A stretch of 64,000 bases of DNA from a virus. Below the pieces are notes generated by a model that saw nothing but the letters and a program-made list of their open reading frames with translations, was not told where the DNA came from and ran no database searches. This document shows, piece after piece, positions 1-24,749 of the stretch (within the stretch, counting starts at the first letter, position 1; every line of letters begins with the position of its first letter). Made by a program: the position numbers and the translations under genes. The stretch spans positions 818-64,817 of the IMG/VR virus record IMGVR_UViG_3300031566_000020, one strand, 5' to 3'.

Positions 1-81
1 ATTAAAACAACAGAAATATATGCTGAACCAGATAAGAAAATGATTAAAGAGTTTTGTGAAAAGATAAGGAATGAGAAATAA
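1..81 (+). CDS. 3' end of an upstream gene (partial)
   Basis: Frame 1 open from base 1 (IKTTEIYAEPDKKMIKEFCEKIRNEK) to TAA at 79-81. Confidence 0.55.
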   Translation: MKTTEIYAEPDKKMIKEFCEKIRNEK

Positions 82-124
82 TCTCTTATATAATATATCA
101 TTGATATACTTATATTGTATTATG

Positions 125-345
125 TTTTACCACTTTTATAAAAAGAAATACGATAGTATTTCTATTATAAAAAGCAGTAAAATATTACTGCTTATATTTA
201 ATAAAATCAATACGAAGTATTGTTTTATTACTTTTTATATACTTCGTATTGATTATTTTGAAAACTTCAGCATTTAAAATGCACTTATAAATTGCGTCCA
301 GAGGACGACGCAGTTGATGTATAATCAAACATTTGACGTATAAAA
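125..345. repeat. Intergenic cluster of inverted repeats/hairpins
   Basis: Imperfect ~27-bp IR 125-151/156-182; perfect 9-bp IR AAGCAGTAA/TTACTGCTT 172-193; perfect 16-bp IR AATCAATACGAAGTAT 205-220 / ATACTTCGTATTGATT 239-254; smaller hairpins to ~330. Confidence 0.85.
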
Positions 346-347
346 AC

Positions 348-376
348 TTGACAACTTTGCAATAATATGGTATACT
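348..376 (+). promoter_or_regulatory. sigma70-type promoter P1
   Basis: TTGACA 348-353, 17-bp spacer, TGG-TATACT extended -10 at 368-376; AAGGAG RBS before ATG 404. Confidence 0.85.
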
Positions 377-403
377 TGTATAGGAGTATAAAAGGAGAAA
401 ACT

Positions 404-634
404 ATGAATAGAAAACAACGAAGGGCAAATCGCTATAACTCTATTACTTTCAAGGGTTATAACAAAAGGCACACAAAAGGGGCTTCCGGTGCGTTACCTG
501 TTCATTTGGAACACTTTAGGAAGCTTGAATACATTAAAAAAGCAACAGAATTTGCAAAAAATGAGTTGAATAAAAACACAGAACCTGTTGTACTAGAACA
601 AGTTAATGAAAAAACAGAGGAAAAAACAGCCTAA
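404..634 (+). CDS. hypothetical protein (76 aa)
   Basis: ORF directly after P1 with AAGGAG RBS. Confidence 0.75.
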   Translation: MNRKQRRANRYNSITFKGYNKRHTKGASGALPVHLEHFRKLEYIKKATEFAKNELNKNTEPVVLEQVNEKTEEKTA

Positions 635-652
635 TTTTTGGGGTAATTTGCT

Positions 653-922
653 ATGAAAGCACTTTGGTCATTAAATGTTGAGATTTTAGAAGAATATTAT
701 GCTCTGCTTGAGAAACTTGAAGCGAAGTTTTTTAGACCATTAACCTATGAGGAGCAAGAGGTAGCTTTTTTAGAGTTGATGAAGCATAAGAATATCAAAC
801 CAATTGGGCATACTGAATTAAATAAAGAAGAATATATAAATGAGTTAGTTTCAAAAGGGAAAAAGATTTTAAATATAGATGAGGACGGATATAAATTTTA
901 CAAACCAAAGGATGAAGAATGA
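653..922 (+). CDS. hypothetical protein (89 aa)
   Basis: ORF track; operon context. Confidence 0.7.
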   Translation: MKALWSLNVEILEEYYALLEKLEAKFFRPLTYEEQEVAFLELMKHKNIKPIGHTELNKEEYINELVSKGKKILNIDEDGYKFYKPKDEE

Positions 923-3371: not shown

Positions 3372-3587
3372 ATGAAAATCCAAGTCAAAATTAATAGAGA
3401 TAATGAAAATCTATATTGCACATATTACAAAGAGCTAATTCCTATTGATGAAAAATATTTAGAAGTCACAGATTATTATTTAGATGATGTCATCATAAAT
3501 GTTTATAGTTATGAATGTATGGACATGTTAGTTAATGACCATATGGAAGAATATGATGAATCACCAGATATTTTCGGAGATTTTTAA
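3372..3587 (+). CDS. hypothetical protein (71 aa)
   Basis: ORF track; tightly packed with neighbours. Confidence 0.65.
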   Translation: MKIQVKINRDNENLYCTYYKELIPIDEKYLEVTDYYLDDVIINVYSYECMDMLVNDHMEEYDESPDIFGDF

Positions 3588-4600
3588 TGAAAAAGGTTGT
3601 AATACTAGATGCCGGAGTTCTTACTCACCGCAGTATCTTTGCTTGGGGTGCTGAAAAAAGAAGACTGTTGCTAAAAGGCACAGATGATGACCCAAGATGT
3701 CCGGCTAGTTATACATATTTAAATACCTGTTATGCAACTTTAAAGAAGATAGGAATAGATAAAGATGATATTGTAATAGTGGCTAAAGATGGATGGAATT
3801 CATGGAGAAAAGCGTTCTTACCGGAATATAAAGGGCAAAGAAAGGCTTTAAGAAAAAGCCATGAAGAAATTGATTGGAAAGCTCAATATGCAATCATCAA
3901 TAGGTTGGAAAGACAATTAGATAAATATACTAATTGGCATGTACTACAATTAAATAATGCTTTTAACTTTGCTGATTTATGTTTAACAGATGAAGGGCAA
4001 GAATTAAATATAGAAGACTATGATATTGACATGGCTACGGAGTATGGTATTGAGTGTGATGATATTATGGCTGTAGCAGTTAAGTATTTTAAAAACTATG
4101 ACGAAATTGTTTTAATGACAATTGATGAAGATATTTCACAGTTAGTTTATTATAAAAATGTTAAGATTTTTAATCCAAATTTAAAAAGTCCAACGAATAA
4201 AGCTAATAAAGGATATTACGAAATTGTAAAAGAACCTCTAAAAATCAGGGCAAAGAAATACAGGTTAGGAGATAAGTCAGATAACATTTTAGTAAACAAA
4301 AATCACGATACACCAAGAGATGTAGAGATAAGACAGCTTGTTATTAATCTGATAGATTTGCCGGGGTGGGTGGAAGAACCTATTTTGAAACAATTAAACA
4401 ATTTAGATTATGAGAAAACAATAGATTATAATAATTTGCCATTTCAAAACTCTTTGGGAAAAAGATTTGATACAATTTACAGCAAGAAATCAGTTCGTAC
4501 TTATGAAGAATCCATTGAAAGAGATACAAAGAAGCAACAGATAGATGCTGAAAAATCCAAATTAAAAAGAAGTCAGAAGAAAAAGAAGGTTAAAGTATGA
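3587..4600 (+). CDS. 5'-3' exonuclease / flap endonuclease (T4 RNase H-like PIN domain)
   Basis: ILDAG, VAKDGWNSWRKAFLPEYKGQRK, ECDDIM, TIDEDISQL, GDKSDNI acidic motifs. Confidence 0.88.
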   Translation: MKKVVILDAGVLTHRSIFAWGAEKRRLLLKGTDDDPRCPASYTYLNTCYATLKKIGIDKDDIVIVAKDGWNSWRKAFLPEYKGQRKALRKSHEEIDWKAQYAIINRLERQLDKYTNWHVLQLNNAFNFADLCLTDEGQELNIEDYDIDMATEYGIECDDIMAVAVKYFKNYDEIVLMTIDEDISQLVYYKNVKIFNPNLKSPTNKANKGYYEIVKEPLKIRAKKYRLGDKSDNILVNKNHDTPRDVEIRQLVINLIDLPGWVEEPILKQLNNLDYEKTIDYNNLPFQNSLGKRFDTIYSKKSVRTYEESIERDTKKQQIDAEKSKLKRSQKKKKVKV

Positions 4601-9143: not shown

Positions 9144-9680
9144 ATGAAAATCCCTATTGATAAGATTGAGATAGCAACAGGCTATAAAGTTAAAAGAAAC
9201 ATTGTTTCTATTGGTTTTGATTGGGCTTCAAGAGCTGGTGTATCTATCATTAAAACAGATGAAAAAAATGCAGAAGTAGAATATATTTTTGTTGAGTTCA
9301 AAGGAAATAACCCAAAAGAAAAATATAAAAGAATGGTTAGAACATTAGAATATTTGGTTTCTTCACAAGATATTGCTATTATTGAAAATGTTTTTGTTGG
9401 ATTTAACAGAAAAGGTTCATTGGAATTAGCTAAATACCATGCCTTTGCTATAAGTGAATGTATAAGGAAAAATGTAAACTATGAAACAGTTATGGCAAAA
9501 GATTGTAGAGCAAAGTTAGGAATTAAAACAACAAAAAAAGCCGGGTATGGTAGAGGAATGGCAAAGAAAGCAGTAGCAGATTATCTTGAAAACACTTTCC
9601 AAATTAAATTAAATGATGAAGATGCAAGTGATTCTGTTATTTTAGCAATGCTTGGTATATTAGAAGGGATTAAATTCTAA
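9144..9680 (+). CDS. ruvC: RuvC-like Holliday junction resolvase
   Basis: IGFDWASRAGVS (D), IAIIENVFVG (E), DEDASDSVILA (DxxD). Confidence 0.75.
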   Translation: MKIPIDKIEIATGYKVKRNIVSIGFDWASRAGVSIIKTDEKNAEVEYIFVEFKGNNPKEKYKRMVRTLEYLVSSQDIAIIENVFVGFNRKGSLELAKYHAFAISECIRKNVNYETVMAKDCRAKLGIKTTKKAGYGRGMAKKAVADYLENTFQIKLNDEDASDSVILAMLGILEGIKF

Positions 9681-11585: not shown

Positions 11586-11758
11586 GTAAATTAAATTTTG
11601 GTATTATTGGGTATGAAAGAAAAGTAGGATATTCTAAAAAAAGAGGATGGATTTTTTGTTATAAATGTCACAGGGAAGTAAGGGATGATATGATAACTGA
11701 CAATGGATGTATTTGGTGTGATACTGAATATCATTCAAAGGAGAAAAATAATGGATAA
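11582..11758 (+). CDS. small Zn-finger protein
   Basis: CYKC...CIWC; TTG start after GGAGGAG. Confidence 0.55.
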   Translation: MSKLNFGIIGYERKVGYSKKRGWIFCYKCHREVRDDMITDNGCIWCDTEYHSKEKNNG

Positions 11759-12908
11759 AAGTGAAAGAAGAAAAAAATTAGAAGAAACAATGAAAGCTTT
11801 TAATAAAAAACAGAAAGATTCTGTCTTAGATTTTGGTGTTTCTCATGAAGAATCTGAAGTAATTCCTACCGGAATAAAAGCTATTGATGATTTTATTGGT
11901 GGTGGAACAAAGCGTGGAACTTTCTCTATTATCTATGGTGGATATTCTGTTGGTAAATCAACAATTGTTTTACAACAAATTGCCCATGCACAAAAGGAAG
12001 GACAGATTTGTTGCTATATTGATTTAGAACATAGCTTTGAGAAAGAACGTGCTAAAGCTTTAGGAGTTAATTTAGATGAATTAGTATTAGCTGAAAAATG
12101 CCAAAATGCAGAACAGGCACTAGAAATTATTCGTGCATTGTGCAAAGAAAAAGCAGTTGATTATTTCGCCATTGATTCAGTACAGGCTATGTCACCTTTA
12201 AATGAGCAAGAAAATAAAGGAAAAGAAAGACAGCTTGTTGAAAAAGAGATTGCTGAATTGGCAAGAACATTAAGTAAATTCTTTAGAGTAGTTGCACCGG
12301 ATGTATTTAATGCTCAAGCAAGTATTGTAATGATTGGACAGGTTAGAATTCATGGTATTGGAACATTCTTTACAAGAGCAGGGCTTACAGGCGGTGAAGC
12401 ACTTAAACATTGGGCTTCACAGATGATTTTCATGCGTCAAGGACAATCTGCTGATGCTCCTGTAAAAGAGTTTAAGAAATATTTTCTTGATAAAGATGGA
12501 AAATTACGGTACAAAACAGAAAAAGATAAGATTGGCTTTGATTGTGTGCTTAAATTAGAGAAAACAAAATCTTCAAAATCTGCTTCTGAAGGTGAAGATG
12601 TTCATGTTCCTTTTGTTTTTGATTATGGGTTTGTAAACGAAGTTAAGCAAGAAGAAGTTGAAATAAAAATAGAAGGAACACCGGAAGAAAAAGAACAGAT
12701 TGAAAAAGAGTTAAAAGAAAAGGGTATTTTAGAAAAATATTCAACTTCAGAAGAACCAAAATCTGCTTATGACCCATTAAAAGAAGGGTATACACCGCAT
12801 CCTGTTAAAGAAGAAGGGGAAATTAAACCACCGCAAGGTGGAACAGGAGAAACAAAAATAGAAGAACCAAAAAAGAAACGTGGCAGACCAACAAAGGAGA
12901 AGAAATAA
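11751..12908 (+). CDS. recA: RecA/UvsX-like recombinase
   Basis: IPTGIKAIDDFIGGG, YGGYSVGKST Walker A, YIDLEH, AIDSVQA Walker B, IGQVR, GGEALKHWAS; AAGGAG RBS. Confidence 0.92.
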   Translation: MDKSERRKKLEETMKAFNKKQKDSVLDFGVSHEESEVIPTGIKAIDDFIGGGTKRGTFSIIYGGYSVGKSTIVLQQIAHAQKEGQICCYIDLEHSFEKERAKALGVNLDELVLAEKCQNAEQALEIIRALCKEKAVDYFAIDSVQAMSPLNEQENKGKERQLVEKEIAELARTLSKFFRVVAPDVFNAQASIVMIGQVRIHGIGTFFTRAGLTGGEALKHWASQMIFMRQGQSADAPVKEFKKYFLDKDGKLRYKTEKDKIGFDCVLKLEKTKSSKSASEGEDVHVPFVFDYGFVNEVKQEEVEIKIEGTPEEKEQIEKELKEKGILEKYSTSEEPKSAYDPLKEGYTPHPVKEEGEIKPPQGGTGETKIEEPKKKRGRPTKEKK

Positions 12909-19929: not shown

Positions 19930-20084
19930 ATACAGATTTTGAGTATACCGATTTATGGTGTTCTAAATGCGGTTATAATGTAGTTGATTTTATGTATGAA
20001 ACAGGAAAAGAACAACAATGTGACTGTCAATCAACATTGCATCCGGATTTTAATCCTGAACTTTGGTATAAAGGTGATGATTAA
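19926..20084 (+). CDS. small Zn-ribbon protein (52 aa), paralog of 24749-25000
   Basis: Read manually: CSKCG...YETGKEQQCDCQSTLHPDFNPELW. Confidence 0.7.
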   Translation: MNTDFEYTDLWCSKCGYNVVDFMYETGKEQQCDCQSTLHPDFNPELWYKGDD

Positions 20085-21213
20085 TTTAGAAAAGATTGAA
20101 CTTACAAATTTTCAAAAACATTCCCATCTGGTTTTAGAATTTAATGATGGGGTTAATATTTTATATGGTTCAAGTGATGCTGGTAAATCATGTGTCAGGA
20201 GAGCTATAGAATTTCTCTGTGATTTTAATGTTTGTGATGGTATTCGTAAGACCGGAACAAAGAAAACAGAAGTTAAGGGCTGGTTTTCAAATGGGGTTAT
20301 TGTAACAAGAGTTCGTAGCACAAGTATCAACAGGTATATTTTAGAGAAAGACGGAAAAGAACAGATTTTTGATGCTATTGGTAGAAGTGGAGTTGAAGAA
20401 ATATAGGAAGCGATAGGCATTTACCCTTTAGAATTTGATGATAAGAAACTTTATTTAAACACACAGCCACAAATTGCTTTACCTTTTTTATTTGATTTAA
20501 GTCCTTCAGATAGGGCTAGGATTTTTAATAAGCTTACCGGAAATGATATTCTAGATAAACTCTTTGGGCAATTCAATAAAGACATTTTACGCATTAAAAG
20601 AAAGTATAAAGAGGAAGTTGAGAATTTTGAAGAAAGGTCAAAAGAAATTGATGAAAAAGAAATAGAGAAGGAAAAAGTAGAAGCACTTCACATGCGGTTA
20701 AAAGTACGCATAAATGACATCAAAAACAGGTATGAAAAATATTCTAAGTTGTTAGAGTTAAAGGATTTACAAGTAAAAAATAGTGAAAACATAAGTAACG
20801 TAAAGACCGTTCTAAAAAACTTCACTTTTCCAGAAGATACTGAAATTAAAAAGCTTAGAGAAAATGTAGTGTCATTTAATGAGCTATTAGAGGTCAAAAA
20901 ACGCTGTGAGAAGCTCTCTGCTGGTTTGGAAGGGGTCAGAGGTCAGTTAAAGGCTTTGCGTTTGCCTACGCTTGATTCTGCAAAGATACAGGGCAAAATA
21001 GAAAGGTTCAACACCCTGAAATCCCTGAAAGAGAAACTTGACAACAATGAGAAAATATGTTATACTATACAGAGAGAAGTCAAAATAGGGGAAAAAGAGC
21101 TTTCTGTTTCATTAGATAGACAAAAATGTTTACTTAAAGAAATGAAAATTTGTCCAATTTGTAAAAGAGAAATAGACAATTCTTGTATAAAGGAGAATTT
21201 TAATGAAAGATAA
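20077..21213 (+). CDS. sbcC: SbcC/Rad50-like ATPase N-terminal half (Walker A, coiled coil, Zn hook) with in-frame TAG at 20404-20406
   Basis: IELTNFQKH, YGSSDAGKS; frame stays open after the TAG (EAIGIYPL...QIALPFLFDLSPSDRARIFNKLTG) and joins ORF 20692-21213 in frame, ending CPICKREID. Confidence 0.82.
21038..21066 (+). promoter_or_regulatory. sigma70-type promoter P4 embedded in sbcC-N
   Basis: TTGACA 21038-21043, 17-bp spacer, TGT-TATACT 21058-21066. Confidence 0.75.
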
Positions 21214-21445
21214 GATAGCAGAGGTGATAAAGAAAAAGGACTTTCATTATGAGTATGATGACCCAAGAGACTTAGCCCAAGCCATTGTTGACCTTATCGC
21301 TAAAGAGTTGCCGAAGGAGAAGGAAATGTCTGATTATGCTCCTAATGGGAGTGTTGAAAAAGCAAGGAATAACCAGTCAAATATGAGTGGCTTCAACCAA
21401 TGCCTTAAAGACATCAAACATAAACTGGGGAATAAAACTGCATAA
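21203..21445 (+). CDS. hypothetical protein (80 aa)
   Basis: AAGGAG RBS; C-terminus encoded through repeat copy 1. Confidence 0.65.
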   Translation: MKDKIAEVIKKKDFHYEYDDPRDLAQAIVDLIAKELPKEKEMSDYAPNGSVEKARNNQSNMSGFNQCLKDIKHKLGNKTA

Positions 21446-21514
21446 ATTTTAAATCAAGTTTCATGCAAATGAACACACTTTCATATAAATGAACATAAAC
21501 TGGGGGGGGGAGTT

Positions 21515-21610
21515 ATGAGTGTATGCTATGTGTGTGGAAAACCTGAAGATAAATGCACCTGTGGAAAAGAAGGAACTTACAAAGGCAAACATAAACTAAC
21601 GGAAGGGTAA
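21515..21610 (+). CDS. Cys-rich microprotein (31 aa)
   Basis: MSVCYVCGKPEDKCTCGKEG...; start codon supplied by repeat copy 2. Confidence 0.5.
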   Translation: MSVCYVCGKPEDKCTCGKEGTYKGKHKLTEG

Positions 21611-21695
21611 ACAGCGTGGCTCGTAACCACAACCTTATTGAGTCGCCAAGCGTCTTGGTAAGTGGACAGGGATTACAACCCTGCCCTTCCGACCA
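21600..21695 (+). ncRNA. tRNA-like structured element (non-canonical or degenerate tRNA)
   Basis: 8-bp acceptor-like stem CGGAAGGG/CCCTTCCG plus ACCA end; 5-bp stem/7-nt loop CAGGG-ATTACAA-CCCTG adjoining the acceptor; hairpins GTGG-CTCGTAA-CCAC and CCAAG-CGT-CTTGG; T-loop and D-arm are non-canonical. Confidence 0.55.
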
Positions 21696-21717
21696 AACAT
21701 AAACTGGGGGTGGAGTT

Positions 21718-21912
21718 ATGAGCAAGGCAAGGTGTAAAAACTGTAAAGAGGTAATTGAATCAAAACATAGACACGACTTTGTAGCCTGTAAATGCTTTAA
21801 GAATAAGCAAAACACAACAGGGATATTCATAGATGGTGGGAATGACTATAGAAGATGTGGAGGAAACTTTGATAATTTAGAGTGGCTAGATAATAAACTG
21901 GGGGTGGAATGA
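21718..21912 (+). CDS. conserved small phage Zn-binding protein (IESxHRHDFVxCxC family)
   Basis: CKNCKEVIESKHRHDFVACKC...IDGGNDY. Confidence 0.75.
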   Translation: MSKARCKNCKEVIESKHRHDFVACKCFKNKQNTTGIFIDGGNDYRRCGGNFDNLEWLDNKLGVE

Positions 21913-22055
21913 AAAAGACCACCAAATATAAAAAAAGAATATGGGAAGATAGGTTGCTTTGTGTTGAAACAACAAGCGATATTGTTGAAAGATACTTCAA
22001 AGGAAATTGGGATGTTAAGTTCAGGAATGAGGAGAACGGGGAGGAAACAAAATGA
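21909..22055 (+). CDS. small hypothetical protein (48 aa)
   Basis: Start supplied by repeat copy 5; ATGA overlaps at both ends. Confidence 0.5.
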   Translation: MKKTTKYKKRIWEDRLLCVETTSDIVERYFKGNWDVKFRNEENGEETK

Positions 22056-22669
22056 TTAGTGACCGTTTATGTGTAGAAGAAAGACATTTTAAAATCGCAA
22101 AAGAGATTAGACCATCTATTAAAAAGGATAATATTGTTTTAATTTATGGTACATCAGGAACAGGAAAAAGTGAAGTAGCTGATTGTTTGCAAGGGGAATT
22201 GTTTAATAAAAATATTTCAAGTTTTGTTCTTTCTTTAGATGATTATTATAACACTATTCCAAGTTTAAGAAATACTAATCGTAAAAAGATGGGATTAGAT
22301 TCTGTTGGATTACAAGAGATTGAATGGGAGCATTTAAGTAGAATTTGTGCAGACTTTCAAGAGAAGAAAACAATCTATTTTAAAAGAGTACATAAATTTG
22401 CAGATATTATTGAACATAATTCAATTGATACAGAAGAAGTTGATGTAATTATTATTGAAGGTTTATTTGCTGGTTATATGAAAAATTATGGTTATGGTGA
22501 CTTTGCAGTTTATTTAGATGGTAATCCAGCTCAAACATTAGCCTTTAGGGAAAAAAGGCGAAAAGAAAATCCTAATGATTCTTTTAGACAGAAAGTAGTG
22601 CAGAAAGAATTTAACATCATTTGTCAGTTAAAAAGATACGCTGATAAAATTATACCGTTTGAGGAATAA
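22052..22669 (+). CDS. uridine kinase / phosphoribulokinase-like P-loop kinase
   Basis: IYGTSGTGKS, LSLDDYY, VIIIEGLFA, FAVYLD. Confidence 0.75.
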   Translation: MISDRLCVEERHFKIAKEIRPSIKKDNIVLIYGTSGTGKSEVADCLQGELFNKNISSFVLSLDDYYNTIPSLRNTNRKKMGLDSVGLQEIEWEHLSRICADFQEKKTIYFKRVHKFADIIEHNSIDTEEVDVIIIEGLFAGYMKNYGYGDFAVYLDGNPAQTLAFREKRRKENPNDSFRQKVVQKEFNIICQLKRYADKIIPFEE

Positions 22670-22670
22670 A

Positions 22671-23594
22671 ATGAAACTTCTTTATTTTCAAGATGGTCAT
22701 GCAAGTGGAAAGAACTCATGTAATTATATCTCTAATTATTTTGAAGATTGGTTAGAGATGTATGATGAGATTCTTTCTATTGCAAAGAAAAATAAATGCG
22801 AAATGATTTTAGATGGTGGCGATTTAGTTGATACCCCAATGCCATCATATAGAGTTCTGGATGAAATAGCAGACCGGACAGAGAAAAACAAGATTCCTGT
22901 TTTTTCTTTATTTGGCAACCATGCTTCACGATTTCATTCAATGGAACACGCACAGTACACAGGATTGGCTCATTTAATTAAGAGAAGTGAGTATTTCAAC
23001 TATCTGGATAACTTTAAAAACGAAGAAGTAAATATTCATGCAATAGAATATTCTCATGATGTTGAAACAAAGATTAAAGAAGACGGTCTAATGTTTCATG
23101 GCGATTCTAATAAGTTTAAAATTTATGTTGTACACGCTTTTATTTGTCCAAAAGAGTTTCCTTTTGCAACCCATGTTGTACCGGAAGATATAAAGACGAA
23201 TGCTGATTTAGTTTTAGTAGGGCATTATCATGACCAATGGGAAAAGAAAATAGGTGATACAACTTATTTAGGTATTGGCTGTATTGGAAGAATGGATATT
23301 TCGGAAAGAGATATTATTCCTACGGTGCTGTTGATTGACACAGATAAAAGAGAATGGAAGAAGATACCTTTACAATCTGCAAAACCAGCAGAAGAAATTT
23401 TTGATTTAGCAAAAGTGGAAGCATTAAAGGCAAAGAGCAAATCAATTGATGAATTTTTAAACAGTATTTCTTCTGTTAAGTTTAAAGGTATTAGGGTAGA
23501 AGATATTATAAAGAACATTGCAACAGAGCAAAAAGTTGATAAAGAAGTGTTAGATTTAATTTTTGATAAAATTGGAGAAATTAATGGATTATAA
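22671..23594 (+). CDS. sbcD: SbcD/Mre11-like metallophosphoesterase nuclease
   Basis: FQDGH, GGDLVD, FGNH, VHAF, VGHYH, IGCIGR; next to SbcC parts. Confidence 0.88.
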   Translation: MKLLYFQDGHASGKNSCNYISNYFEDWLEMYDEILSIAKKNKCEMILDGGDLVDTPMPSYRVLDEIADRTEKNKIPVFSLFGNHASRFHSMEHAQYTGLAHLIKRSEYFNYLDNFKNEEVNIHAIEYSHDVETKIKEDGLMFHGDSNKFKIYVVHAFICPKEFPFATHVVPEDIKTNADLVLVGHYHDQWEKKIGDTTYLGIGCIGRMDISERDIIPTVLLIDTDKREWKKIPLQSAKPAEEIFDLAKVEALKAKSKSIDEFLNSISSVKFKGIRVEDIIKNIATEQKVDKEVLDLIFDKIGEINGL

Positions 23595-23811
23595 AGCTGA
23601 ATTTGACAAATTACAAGAAGATATTAATAATAAGAAGCTTGAGAAAGCCAAGCTGGAAGAACGATTAGAAAATCTTCAAAAAGAACAAAAACAAATTAAT
23701 CAAGAGTTGGTAGAACTTGGACTGACTTCTGAAGAATTAGATGATACGATTTATAAATTAGAGGAAGAAATTAAAGCGGAGATTGAGAAATGCCAAAAAA
23801 ACCTAAGTTAA
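23584..23811 (+). CDS. coiled-coil protein (75 aa), possible middle segment of split SbcC
   Basis: Heptad-rich Leu/Glu/Lys sequence; follows sbcD. Confidence 0.65.
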   Translation: MDYKAEFDKLQEDINNKKLEKAKLEERLENLQKEQKQINQELVELGLTSEELDDTIYKLEEEIKAEIEKCQKNLS

Positions 23812-23972
23812 AAAAATATTTAGTAGTATTTGAAGACCCTGAACCATATATTGAGGTAGTGGTTAAAGCAAGAAATGAAAACGAAGCGATTAAAAAGGCT
23901 GAAAAGAAAGAACCAGACGGAATTTTTATAGACATACAGGAAATAGAGGAAGTAAAAAATGGGAAAGAATAA
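23790..23972 (+). CDS. hypothetical protein (60 aa)
   Basis: ORF track; packed. Confidence 0.6.
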   Translation: MPKKPKLKKYLVVFEDPEPYIEVVVKARNENEAIKKAEKKEPDGIFIDIQEIEEVKNGKE

Positions 23973-24141
23973 ATTAAAAAAGATAGAAATTAAAAGGAAA
24001 TATGTATATACAACATTTACAGATGGAACTGTTTGTAAACATCCTAAACATGCAACAGATGTATCTGTTGAACTTAGACAACCAAAAGTTCAGCCATTAA
24101 TACAAAAATTTCCTATAACTTTAAATGATATAATTATATGA
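23959..24141 (+). CDS. hypothetical protein (60 aa)
   Basis: GAGG RBS; packed. Confidence 0.55.
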   Translation: MGKNKLKKIEIKRKYVYTTFTDGTVCKHPKHATDVSVELRQPKVQPLIQKFPITLNDIII

Positions 24142-24749
24142 AAGATAAAATTAAACAATTAGAAGAAGCTTTTGAAAAATTCTCCAATAAAGTCGGAAGA
24201 CTTCAAGGGGAATACTCTACTTTAAGAATACAACAAGAAACAAGTGGAACTATAATTGAGAAATTAAAACATCAAGAAGAAGTTTATACAAAAGCGGTTC
24301 AGCTATTAACTTTAGTTCAGCAAATAACAAGAGATAAAGTGAAACAGGGATTTGAAGATATTGTTAGTCATGCATTGAATTATATTTTTGAAAGTGATAA
24401 GTATTCTTTTGAGTTGGATTTTAATACAAGGGGAAATTTACAGACTTTAGATTTCAAGGTTAGAACCCCGGATAAAGATGAACCTTTAGATTTAATTGAT
24501 ACATCAGGGGGTGGAGTGATTAATATCGTGTCCTTTGCATTAAGAGTTGTCTTGATGGAGCTTACACAACCTAAGACAGAAGGATTTATTATTGCAGATG
24601 AAACCTTTGCTAATTTAAGTGAAGACCGGATTGAAAGAGCAAGTCAGTTCTTAAAGGAAATAAACCAGAAAATGAATCGGCAAGTGATTGCGATTTCACA
24701 CCAAAACAAAATGTTGGATAGTGCAGATAAATTAATTGAGGTAAAATAA
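24138..24749 (+). CDS. sbcC: SbcC/Rad50-like ATPase C-terminal half
   Basis: Coiled coil followed by signature TSGGGVINIVSFALR, Walker B FIIADETF, and H-loop AISH. Confidence 0.9.
   Translation: MKDKIKQLEEAFEKFSNKVGRLQGEYSTLRIQQETSGTIIEKLKHQEEVYTKAVQLLTLVQQITRDKVKQGFEDIVSHALNYIFESDKYSFELDFNTRGNLQTLDFKVRTPDKDEPLDLIDTSGGGVINIVSFALRVVLMELTQPKTEGFIIADETFANLSEDRIERASQFLKEINQKMNRQVIAISHQNKMLDSADKLIEVK

Follow-up and report, generated by a model that had tools for sequence, protein, structure and literature searches.

The 64,000-nucleotide stretch of viral DNA analysed here (the window; positions 818 to 64,817 of IMG/VR record IMGVR_UViG_3300031566_000020, a 68,226-bp record with an estimated completeness of 73%) carries, at 21203-22055 in the slot between the genes for an SbcC N-terminal half and SbcD, an array of very small genes and one structured RNA-like unit that meet each other at copies of a short repeat. 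We found that this repeat originates in a gene family, that the units it bounds occur in alternative pairings on related contigs, that insertions and deletions between those contigs are delimited by the repeat, and that near-identical units occur in phages of clearly different base composition. The explanation we favour, with a probability of roughly two in three (0.68), is that the units of this slot are joined by a reusable junction and are exchanged by short-homology recombination among co-infecting phages, with selection acting on the register between the Shine-Dalgarno (SD) sequence and the start codon. An earlier note, made from the letters of the sequence alone, had proposed an integron-like or recombination-shuffled array of cassettes; the second of these descriptions is borne out by related contigs, which differ in the presence and order of the units that lie between repeat copies, and the first is taken up below.

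The repeat, (C)AAACATAAACTGGGGG(T)GGAG(TT)ATG, occurs in five copies on the + strand within 21416-21911 of the window, and the five-copy arrangement at unit junctions described in the earlier note is real: matches to AAACATAAACTGGGGG with 0-3 mismatches start at 21416, 21491, 21587, 21695, and 21889, while 100 dinucleotide-preserving shuffles gave a mean of 0.62 matches and none of the 100 reached five. A repeat search placed four junction copies at start-to-start spacings of 75, 204, and 194 bp and assigned the variant copy 3 to a second repeat family. The 13-nt core CATAAACTGGGGG, allowing at most one mismatch, matched all five copies except the strongly diverged copy 3 and had no site beyond the array in the 68,226-bp record, so that by this search none of the record's other ~70 gene starts has the motif. 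The nine-G run of copy 2 lies within window positions 21498-21509.

As the earlier note had recognised, the repeat can serve genes on either of its sides. The GGAG and ATG of the open reading frames (ORFs) ORF31 (21515), ORF64 (21718), and ORF48 (21909) come from copies 2, 4, and 5, respectively, with an SD of GGAG or GGTGGAG placed 5-8 nt ahead of each start, and copies 1, 3, and 5 encode the KHKL or NKL near the C-termini of the upstream ORFs (...IKHKLGNKTA-stop for ORF80, ...GKHKLTEG-stop for ORF31, and ...DNKLGVE-stop for ORF64). The block is also more G-rich than its flanks, as had been claimed, with a GC fraction of 0.475 at 21500-21700 against 0.26-0.30 on either side. Within or around the junction copies the repeat search found no inverted repeat or hairpin and instead a purine- and G-rich direct repeat, a scan for sigma-70-like sites found no promoter-like site overlapping any of the five copies, and no terminator-like site was found within 21203-22055. 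The only strong sigma-70-like site (TTGACA-17-TATACT, extended TG, 11/12 match) lies upstream of the array, ~140 nt ahead of ORF80, in agreement with the earlier placement of the array just behind a promoter called P4; this candidate is a consensus match only, and such sites are not more numerous in the region than in shuffled sequence.

Alignments indicate that the repeat is not a free-standing element and that it is instead the native, conserved 3′ end of the gene family to which ORF80 belongs. ORF80 aligns as a homologue with ORF86 and ORF104 of two related contigs (L055 and L058, respectively), and a profile search recovered at least 39 family proteins in a 90%-identity database; a search of 1.84 billion proteins gave 110 family clusters (50% identity), of which 28 matched with E ≤1e-10, and matches to the ORF80 family profile reach 1e-26. 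The family proteins are all 67-200 aa long and unnamed, and nearly all of them end in ...K.KLGVE. They share three blocks (MKDKIAEVI, AQAILDLIAKELPKEKE, and GYNQCLKDIKHKLGVE-stop) with two hypervariable segments between them, and ORF80 aligns over all three. The N-terminal, middle, and C-terminal blocks are near-identical in DNA, synonymous sites included, and the intervening segments are unalignable. These variable segments assort independently: one type of the first segment (V1) is found with four types of the second (V2), and at least five V2 types are each found with two V1 types. One contig (L056) is 99.94% identical to the window from position 21308, in the middle block, onward and is unrelated upstream of it. 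In an AlphaFold2 model of ORF80 built on the family alignment, three predicted helices coincide with the three blocks; the model is of modest confidence (predicted local distance difference test score, pLDDT, 70.7). Several variable segments in the family (alignment A3; P0135-P0253) are Cys-rich.

On the evidence of these comparisons, the junction repeat consists of the conserved 3′ block of the family (...KDIKHKLGVE-stop) together with an SD and the start codon of the next gene. The block is non-coding or out of frame at copies 2 and 4 of the window, stands after a stop codon in contigs L060 and L196, and is frame-shifted at position 2950 of contig L192. Since it is kept at places where it is untranslatable as a protein tail, the repeat is also maintained at the DNA or RNA level. 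In a diverged member of the family that comes from a different set of samples (L194:6001-6500; IMG/VR uncultivated virus genome, UViG, 3300028388_002289), the C-terminal block has been lost from the gene and is found as a separate 10-codon ORF (MTLAIKHNLEE-stop) directly 5′ of a zinc-ribbon-like ORF that starts with MSKKTVCDNC and resembles the start of ORF64.

Related contigs show that the units between repeat copies are gained, lost, and reordered. A metagenome scan with the repeat led to L055, a 2,586-bp contig of 43% GC, and look-ups of the exact proteins of ORF31, ORF64, and the L055 genes led to contigs L056-L067, all from sister samples; we compared the contigs by pairwise blastn and by a table of all junctions, which holds 13 distinct pairings. 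An identical ORF64 has three upstream partners, namely the RNA-like unit (window, L056, L061, and L064), a 65-aa double-zinc-ribbon ORF (L060), and ORF104 (L058, L059, L062, and L063), and three downstream partners, ORF48, ORF111 (L058, L062, and L063), and ORF51 (L059). The DNA shared around ORF64 is 98.6% identical over 218-221 bp and extends exactly from copy 4 to copy 5. ORF31 and the RNA-like unit travel together, and in L055 this combined unit is 99.5% identical over 216 bp and lies between a glycosyltransferase (GT) gene and the ORF80 homologue ORF86, which is followed by ORF39, ORF51, and a TerL gene (Terminase_3).

Three length differences between contigs are informative in this respect. 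In L061, the 75 bp from copy 1 to copy 2 are missing, and ORF80 and ORF31 are thereby joined in one frame; L067 corresponds to L055 with the 203-bp unit of ORF31 and RNA removed, the joint sharing only 13 nt, GG(G/T)GGAGTTATGA; and L060 has an additional 226-bp unit between the RNA-like unit and ORF64. All three of these insertions or deletions end inside the repeat, and L061 and L067 have the form of the deletion product that would be reciprocal to a mini-circle released between nearby copies. The KHKL frame of copy 2 is in phase with ORF31, and the 75-bp deletion of L061 accordingly makes an ORF80-ORF31 fusion protein. Several pairings recur in independent samples and assemblers, with ORF104-ORF64 found in four contigs and ORF64-ORF111 and ORF39-ORF51 in three each. 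The earlier note had reasoned that identical content and order in relatives would speak for a mere conserved ribosome-binding context, and the sister contigs differ in both.

The exchange appears to reach across phages of different base composition. The GT and TerL genes that flank the units in L055-type contigs have 44-47% GC and no homologue in the 68-kb record, which belongs to an uncultured phage of ~32% GC and has no 2-kb window above 36% GC, and a complete genome related to the window phage (G002) contains nothing that matches the L055-type TerL. From these comparisons, at least two compositionally different phages (43-47% against 32% GC) evidently share near-identical units. The L055 context as a missing part of the same genome was considered and set aside as unlikely, on the strength of the GC contents (44-47% against at most 36%), the missing homologues, and the missing TerL in G002, a judgement that falls short of proof. 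Two further arrays lie on other backbones and share no window DNA beyond the blocks: contig L192 (4.3 kb, 41% GC), which shares its backbone with the 24-kb contig from which L191 comes, carries family members in tandem and seven copies of the junction, and contig L196 (17.9 kb, 38.5% GC) has four junction copies. The higher-GC contexts as a whole (L055, L058, L059, and L065; L191-L193; L196) may come from one genome or from several. L064 and a 6,504-bp ENA contig join the 44%-GC GT gene to a window-type series of ORF64, ORF48, kinase, and SbcD by way of the ORF31 and RNA unit, and these joins are either real inter-phage recombinants or assembly chimeras.

Two wider scans with short sequence motifs returned no array of this kind. 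A viral scan with CATAAACTGGGGGNGGAG gave only two chance matches in high-GC coding DNA, and the 16-mer TAAACTGGGGGTGGAG gave 8 viral matches and 116 genome loci, nearly all of them single, with no comparable junction array among them. One of the loci (L156) carries the 16-mer twice in a different repeated context. In contigs of Anaerolineae metagenome-assembled genomes (L080, L093, L098, L099, L101, L162, and L185), a palindromic repeat resembling repetitive extragenic palindromes (TAAACTGGGGGTGGAGGGGGCG..GCCCCCTCCCAGGGGG) lies near contig ends and shares this 16-mer with the phage junction, apparently by chance.

The unit at 21600-21694 (95 nt) differs from the others in that it appears to be a structured RNA. 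It is predicted to fold into a four-way junction of -38.8 kcal/mol (z -2.2). The tRNA-like RNA of the earlier note could not be recognised as a tRNA, as ARAGORN, run on the + strand down to 80% thresholds, reported no tRNA in the unit, and Rfam gave no match either at the gathering threshold or at E values up to 10. A second version of the element at 3935-4044 of L192, compared with window 21598-21700, has identical 5′ and 3′ parts and a central arm replaced by unrelated sequence, which is again a predicted hairpin (-46.3 kcal/mol, z -3.83, 0/200 shuffles). The closing stem and two side hairpins are common to both, so that the comparison offers two arm variants and no classical covariation. 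The L192 element lies after a family member (P0147) whose KHKLTEG tail matches that of ORF31, and the variant block of copy 3 precedes the element there as well. Among the sister contigs, a T-to-G change in L055 and L060 removes the bulge of the central arm, and a C-to-A change in L064 falls in a loop. These fold predictions suggest a real structured element with a variable arm, which might act as a processing signal, as a stabiliser, or in some other way, and the arm swap in L192 could reflect a modular RNA in which the variable arm confers specificity. A covariance model of the element (R1) found no further copy in 21 sources, and a 24-mer from its 3′ half had 0 viral matches. A second candidate structured unit at L192 2950-3085 was rejected (z -0.64).

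Table 1. Features of the array and of the bordering genes in the window.
Feature	Position	Strand	Description
SbcC/Rad50 N-terminal half	20078..21213	+	Left border of variable slot; Pfam AAA_23, phrog_16465
Sigma-70-like promoter candidate	21038..21066	+	P4 of the earlier note; consensus match
ORF80	21203..21445	+	Member of three-block hypervariable small-protein family (MKDKIAEVI / AI.DLIAKELPKEKE / NQCLKDIKHKLG...)
Junction copy 1	21407..21431	+	Native 3′ block of ORF80 (AAAGACATCAAACATAAACTGGGG); SD/start half degenerate
Non-coding spacer	21446..21490	+	17-nt internal duplication; missing from L061 within the 75-bp deletion from copy 1 to copy 2
Junction copy 2	21491..21517	+	Non-coding, run of 9 G; SD and ATG of ORF31
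ORF31	21515..21610	+	Cys-rich mini-protein, tail KHKLTEG
Junction copy 3	21587..21602	+	Variant 3′ block (AAACATAAACTAACGG)
Structured RNA-like element	21600..21694	+	GC-rich (55%); predicted 8-bp closing stem and three hairpins; travels with ORF31
Junction copy 4	21695..21720	+	Non-coding here; SD and ATG of ORF64
ORF64	21718..21912	+	DUF7695, zinc-ribbon-like; 194-bp cassette
Junction copy 5	21889..21911	+	Encodes DNKLGVE-stop; ATGA overlap starts ORF48
ORF48	21909..22055	+	Small basic protein, last unit of the array
PRK/uridine-kinase-like P-loop protein	22052..22669	+	205 aa
SbcD/Mre11 nuclease	22659..23594	+	Right border of variable slot

Units of 194, 203-204, and 226 bp each carry one junction copy. 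The assignment of ORF64 as a zinc protein in the earlier note agrees with its match to Pfam DUF7695 (E 1e-14), and the exact ORF31 protein is present on other contigs. At a guess, the mini-proteins, which comprise zinc ribbons and a three-helix family, might be hypervariable early proteins or proteins of host interaction.

The array lies in a locus that is conserved in its frame and variable in its contents. SbcC is split into a ~370-aa N-terminal half (phrog_16465), which ends at the CxxC zinc hook, and a 203-aa C-terminal half (phrog_15167), and the gene order at 20078-24749 (also L007-L011 and L051-L054) is N-terminal half, variable ORFs, SbcD, variable ORFs, a conserved 75-82-aa coiled-coil ORF, and C-terminal half. 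This order is kept in relatives at 35-70% identity; the split belongs natively to the lineage, and the array did not cause it. SbcD has ~120 relatives at 40-62% identity, and in nine syntenic loci the slot between the SbcC N-terminal half and SbcD holds 2-6 small ORFs of differing kinds, an HNH/NUMOD endonuclease among them. The slot that the array occupies is thus a hyperplastic one, which is variable in all relatives at 55-62% SbcD identity and lacks the kinase-like gene in them. ORF80, ORF31, ORF64, ORF48, and the kinase had no homologue in the nine syntenic relatives by tblastn, GenBank phages had no blastn match to window 20000-24000, and a search for related loci with SbcD alone found none, while the same search with an alignment found only three close IMG/VR relatives.

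A single in-frame TAG interrupts the SbcC N-terminal half at 20404-20406. Relatives carry a 366-378-aa gene at this position, and a near-identical ENA contig has it called intact at 378 aa, which makes the TAG look like either a nonsense mutation peculiar to the strain or an error in the sequence. Stop-codon recoding was rejected as an explanation, as TAG terminates 7 of 76 long ORFs.

The last 25-35 nt of a three-block family gene (...AAAGACATCAAACATAAACTGGGGGTGGAG, read ...KDIKHKLGVE-stop) double as a strong Shine-Dalgarno sequence abutting or overlapping the next start (ATGA, GTGA, or TGATG), and on our favoured explanation a unit landing at such a junction would probably be translated by coupling. 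Several co-occurring phages have the junction and the N-terminal and middle blocks of the family, and short-homology recombination in the course of replication or co-infection could therefore exchange units, inserting, deleting, or swapping the DNA between two copies. The joining would be by homologous or microhomology recombination, probably without a dedicated enzyme, and the machinery could be that of the phage, whose window encodes RecA (11703-12908), a RuvC-like nuclease (9144-9680), and a 5′-3′ exonuclease (3587-4600) in addition to SbcCD, or that of the host. Selection would then retain recombinants in which SD and start are in register. We favour short-homology recombination because exchange breakpoints also lie in the unrelated middle block of the ORF80 family (21308) and because the homology used at junction events is 13 to ~30 nt.

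Several considerations weigh against this explanation. Recombination is read from assembled contigs, with no event observed directly, and all variants come from one group of sister samples. The shared units of 194-226 bp exceed the k-mers of assemblers, which could have misjoined left and right flanks, and long-range linkage within single contigs (L059, L060, and L064) is therefore less certain than the junctions themselves. Homology of 13-30 nt does not exceed the minimum that RecA-type exchange usually needs. Moreover, every junction event fits one crossover point in or next to the G-run, and the record encodes an Xer-like tyrosine recombinase.

The last two points lend some substance to a dedicated site-specific or nuclease-stimulated system that acts on the junction, for example on its G-run, in the style of attC cassettes and with the Xer-like recombinase or an unrecognised nuclease as its enzyme. 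All 13 pairings and the three insertions or deletions fit a single crossover point in TAAACTGGGGGTGGA or the G-run, each unit has one junction copy (spacings of 194, 203-204, and 226 bp), and the junction between GT and ORF31 has just those 13 nt of homology. We nevertheless regard such a system as improbable. The Xer-like gene (259 aa; G000:C1:119-898, window -699..81) is found where the record begins on the left, ~21 kb away from the array; it is the only tyrosine recombinase in the record and falls below every curated NCBIfam cut-off, its best match, archaeal XerA, giving 155 bits where the cut-off is 220 and the integron-integrase subfamily model 101 where it is 265. A search for a serine recombinase found none, the junction is devoid of inverted repeats and hairpins, and exchange at the middle block is unexplained by a single-site enzyme. 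A more far-reaching version, to which we likewise give little credence, would have the junction, with its invariant G-run, as the target of a dedicated exchange mechanism (site-directed nuclease or Xer-like) common to several unrelated soil phages, with the four-way-junction RNA as a functional part of it. If true, this would be a phage-borne, integron-like cassette system acting on coding junctions, and the co-travelling RNA might be, for example, an RNase P/Z-type processing signal or a guide.

The remaining alternatives explain the conservation of the repeat, or the shuffling, in other ways. The ...KHKLGVE tail might be kept mainly as a functional C-terminal tag for interaction, degradation, or localisation, with cassette mobility secondary; it is conserved even in diverged members (...RERLGV, ...KTKLGGEMK, ...RAKLEGK), and unrelated ORFs end with it (ORF39, ORF64, ORF31, and 145-aa and 55-aa ORFs of L192). 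The untranslatable instances of the block listed above speak against this, as does the identity of synonymous sites across unrelated genes, which points to DNA exchange over peptide selection, and we hold the tag to be an unlikely main cause. Units longer than typical k-mers, the possibly chimeric joins of the 44%-GC GT gene to the 32%-GC backbone in L064 and the second ENA contig, and the common origin of all contigs in sister samples would also be compatible with a local duplication of one junction only, the shuffling between contigs being an assembly artefact across shared 200-bp segments. This we find distinctly unlikely, given that junctions of 25-35 nt plus flanks are shorter than k, so that the pairings should exist in reads, that several pairings recur in independent samples and assemblers, and that the arrays of L192 and L196 lie on unrelated backbones. 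That the repeat is no more than a preferred setting for ribosome binding and has no part in gene turnover is very improbable: the spacing of GGAG or GGTGGAG before each start and the single, chance-type 16-mer matches at gene junctions in unrelated genomes would suit it, and yet the conservation reaches past the SD by at least 20 nt into the gene ahead of it, homology between genomes begins and ends in the repeat, and the other ~70 gene starts of the record do without the motif.

The closest published system is that of the promoter-early stem-loops (PeSLs) of T4-type phages, which lie between genes, combine a sigma-70 promoter with a terminator stem-loop, and have been shown to yield mini-circles (Arbiol et al. 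2010, PMC2839356; Comeau et al. 2014, PMC4122927). Both systems consist of short repeated motifs that bound small ORFan genes in hyperplastic regions, both motifs close with the SD and start codon of the gene that follows, the endpoints of insertions, deletions, and replacements between related phages fall in the motif in both, and homologous recombination has been proposed for both. The junction described here differs in having neither a sigma-70-like promoter nor a terminator stem-loop, in being dual-coding (it supplies the last codons of the upstream gene and is derived from the 3′ end of one family), and in implying coupling within one transcript, whereas PeSLs are autonomous transcription units.

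Integrons offer a second comparison. Their cassettes carry attC sites, imperfect inverted repeats (R″/L″...L′/R′) that fold into a hairpin, and are moved by an IntI-type integrase whose gene lies beside the array with attI and the promoter Pc; arrays of attC sites also occur as clusters of attC sites lacking integrases (CALINs). The likeness lies in arrays of small promoterless ORFs with one recombination sequence at each 3′ end and an upstream promoter, and in the unit-wise gain, loss, and reordering seen in both. The junction of the window phage, by contrast, lies within coding sequence and is not built like the hairpin of an attC site, neither IntI nor attI adjoins the array, and exchange also occurs at other conserved blocks. 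The integron-like reading of the earlier note is for these reasons not upheld: no attC-like hairpin was found, the only tyrosine recombinase is distant and sub-threshold, and breakpoints also fall in the middle block.

In the modular view of phage evolution (Botstein's modular theory and the mosaics of lambdoid and dairy phages), boundary or linker sequences lie at gene borders. As in that view, short conserved stretches at gene borders would here be the crossover points between unrelated modules; the difference is that the linker is repeated at least five times in less than 1 kb, delimits units of ~200 bp, and is common to phages of very different base composition. The array amounts to a coding-junction version of the kind of modular shuffling that T4-type phages are known for. 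Particular to the present case are the origin of the junction in a three-block, combinatorially shuffled protein family, the exchange between phages of 32% and ~38-47% GC, and a structured RNA-like unit that behaves as a cassette.

Taken at the level of the population, these results give a picture of phages that trade accessory genes of 200 bp across very different base compositions. One junction would act as gene end, ribosome site, and crossover point, and one of the mobile units appears to be a structured RNA and not a gene. The locus also opens the rules of modular shuffling to tests in phages beyond the T4 group, among them the minimal homology that exchange requires, expression by translational coupling, and which cargo moves.

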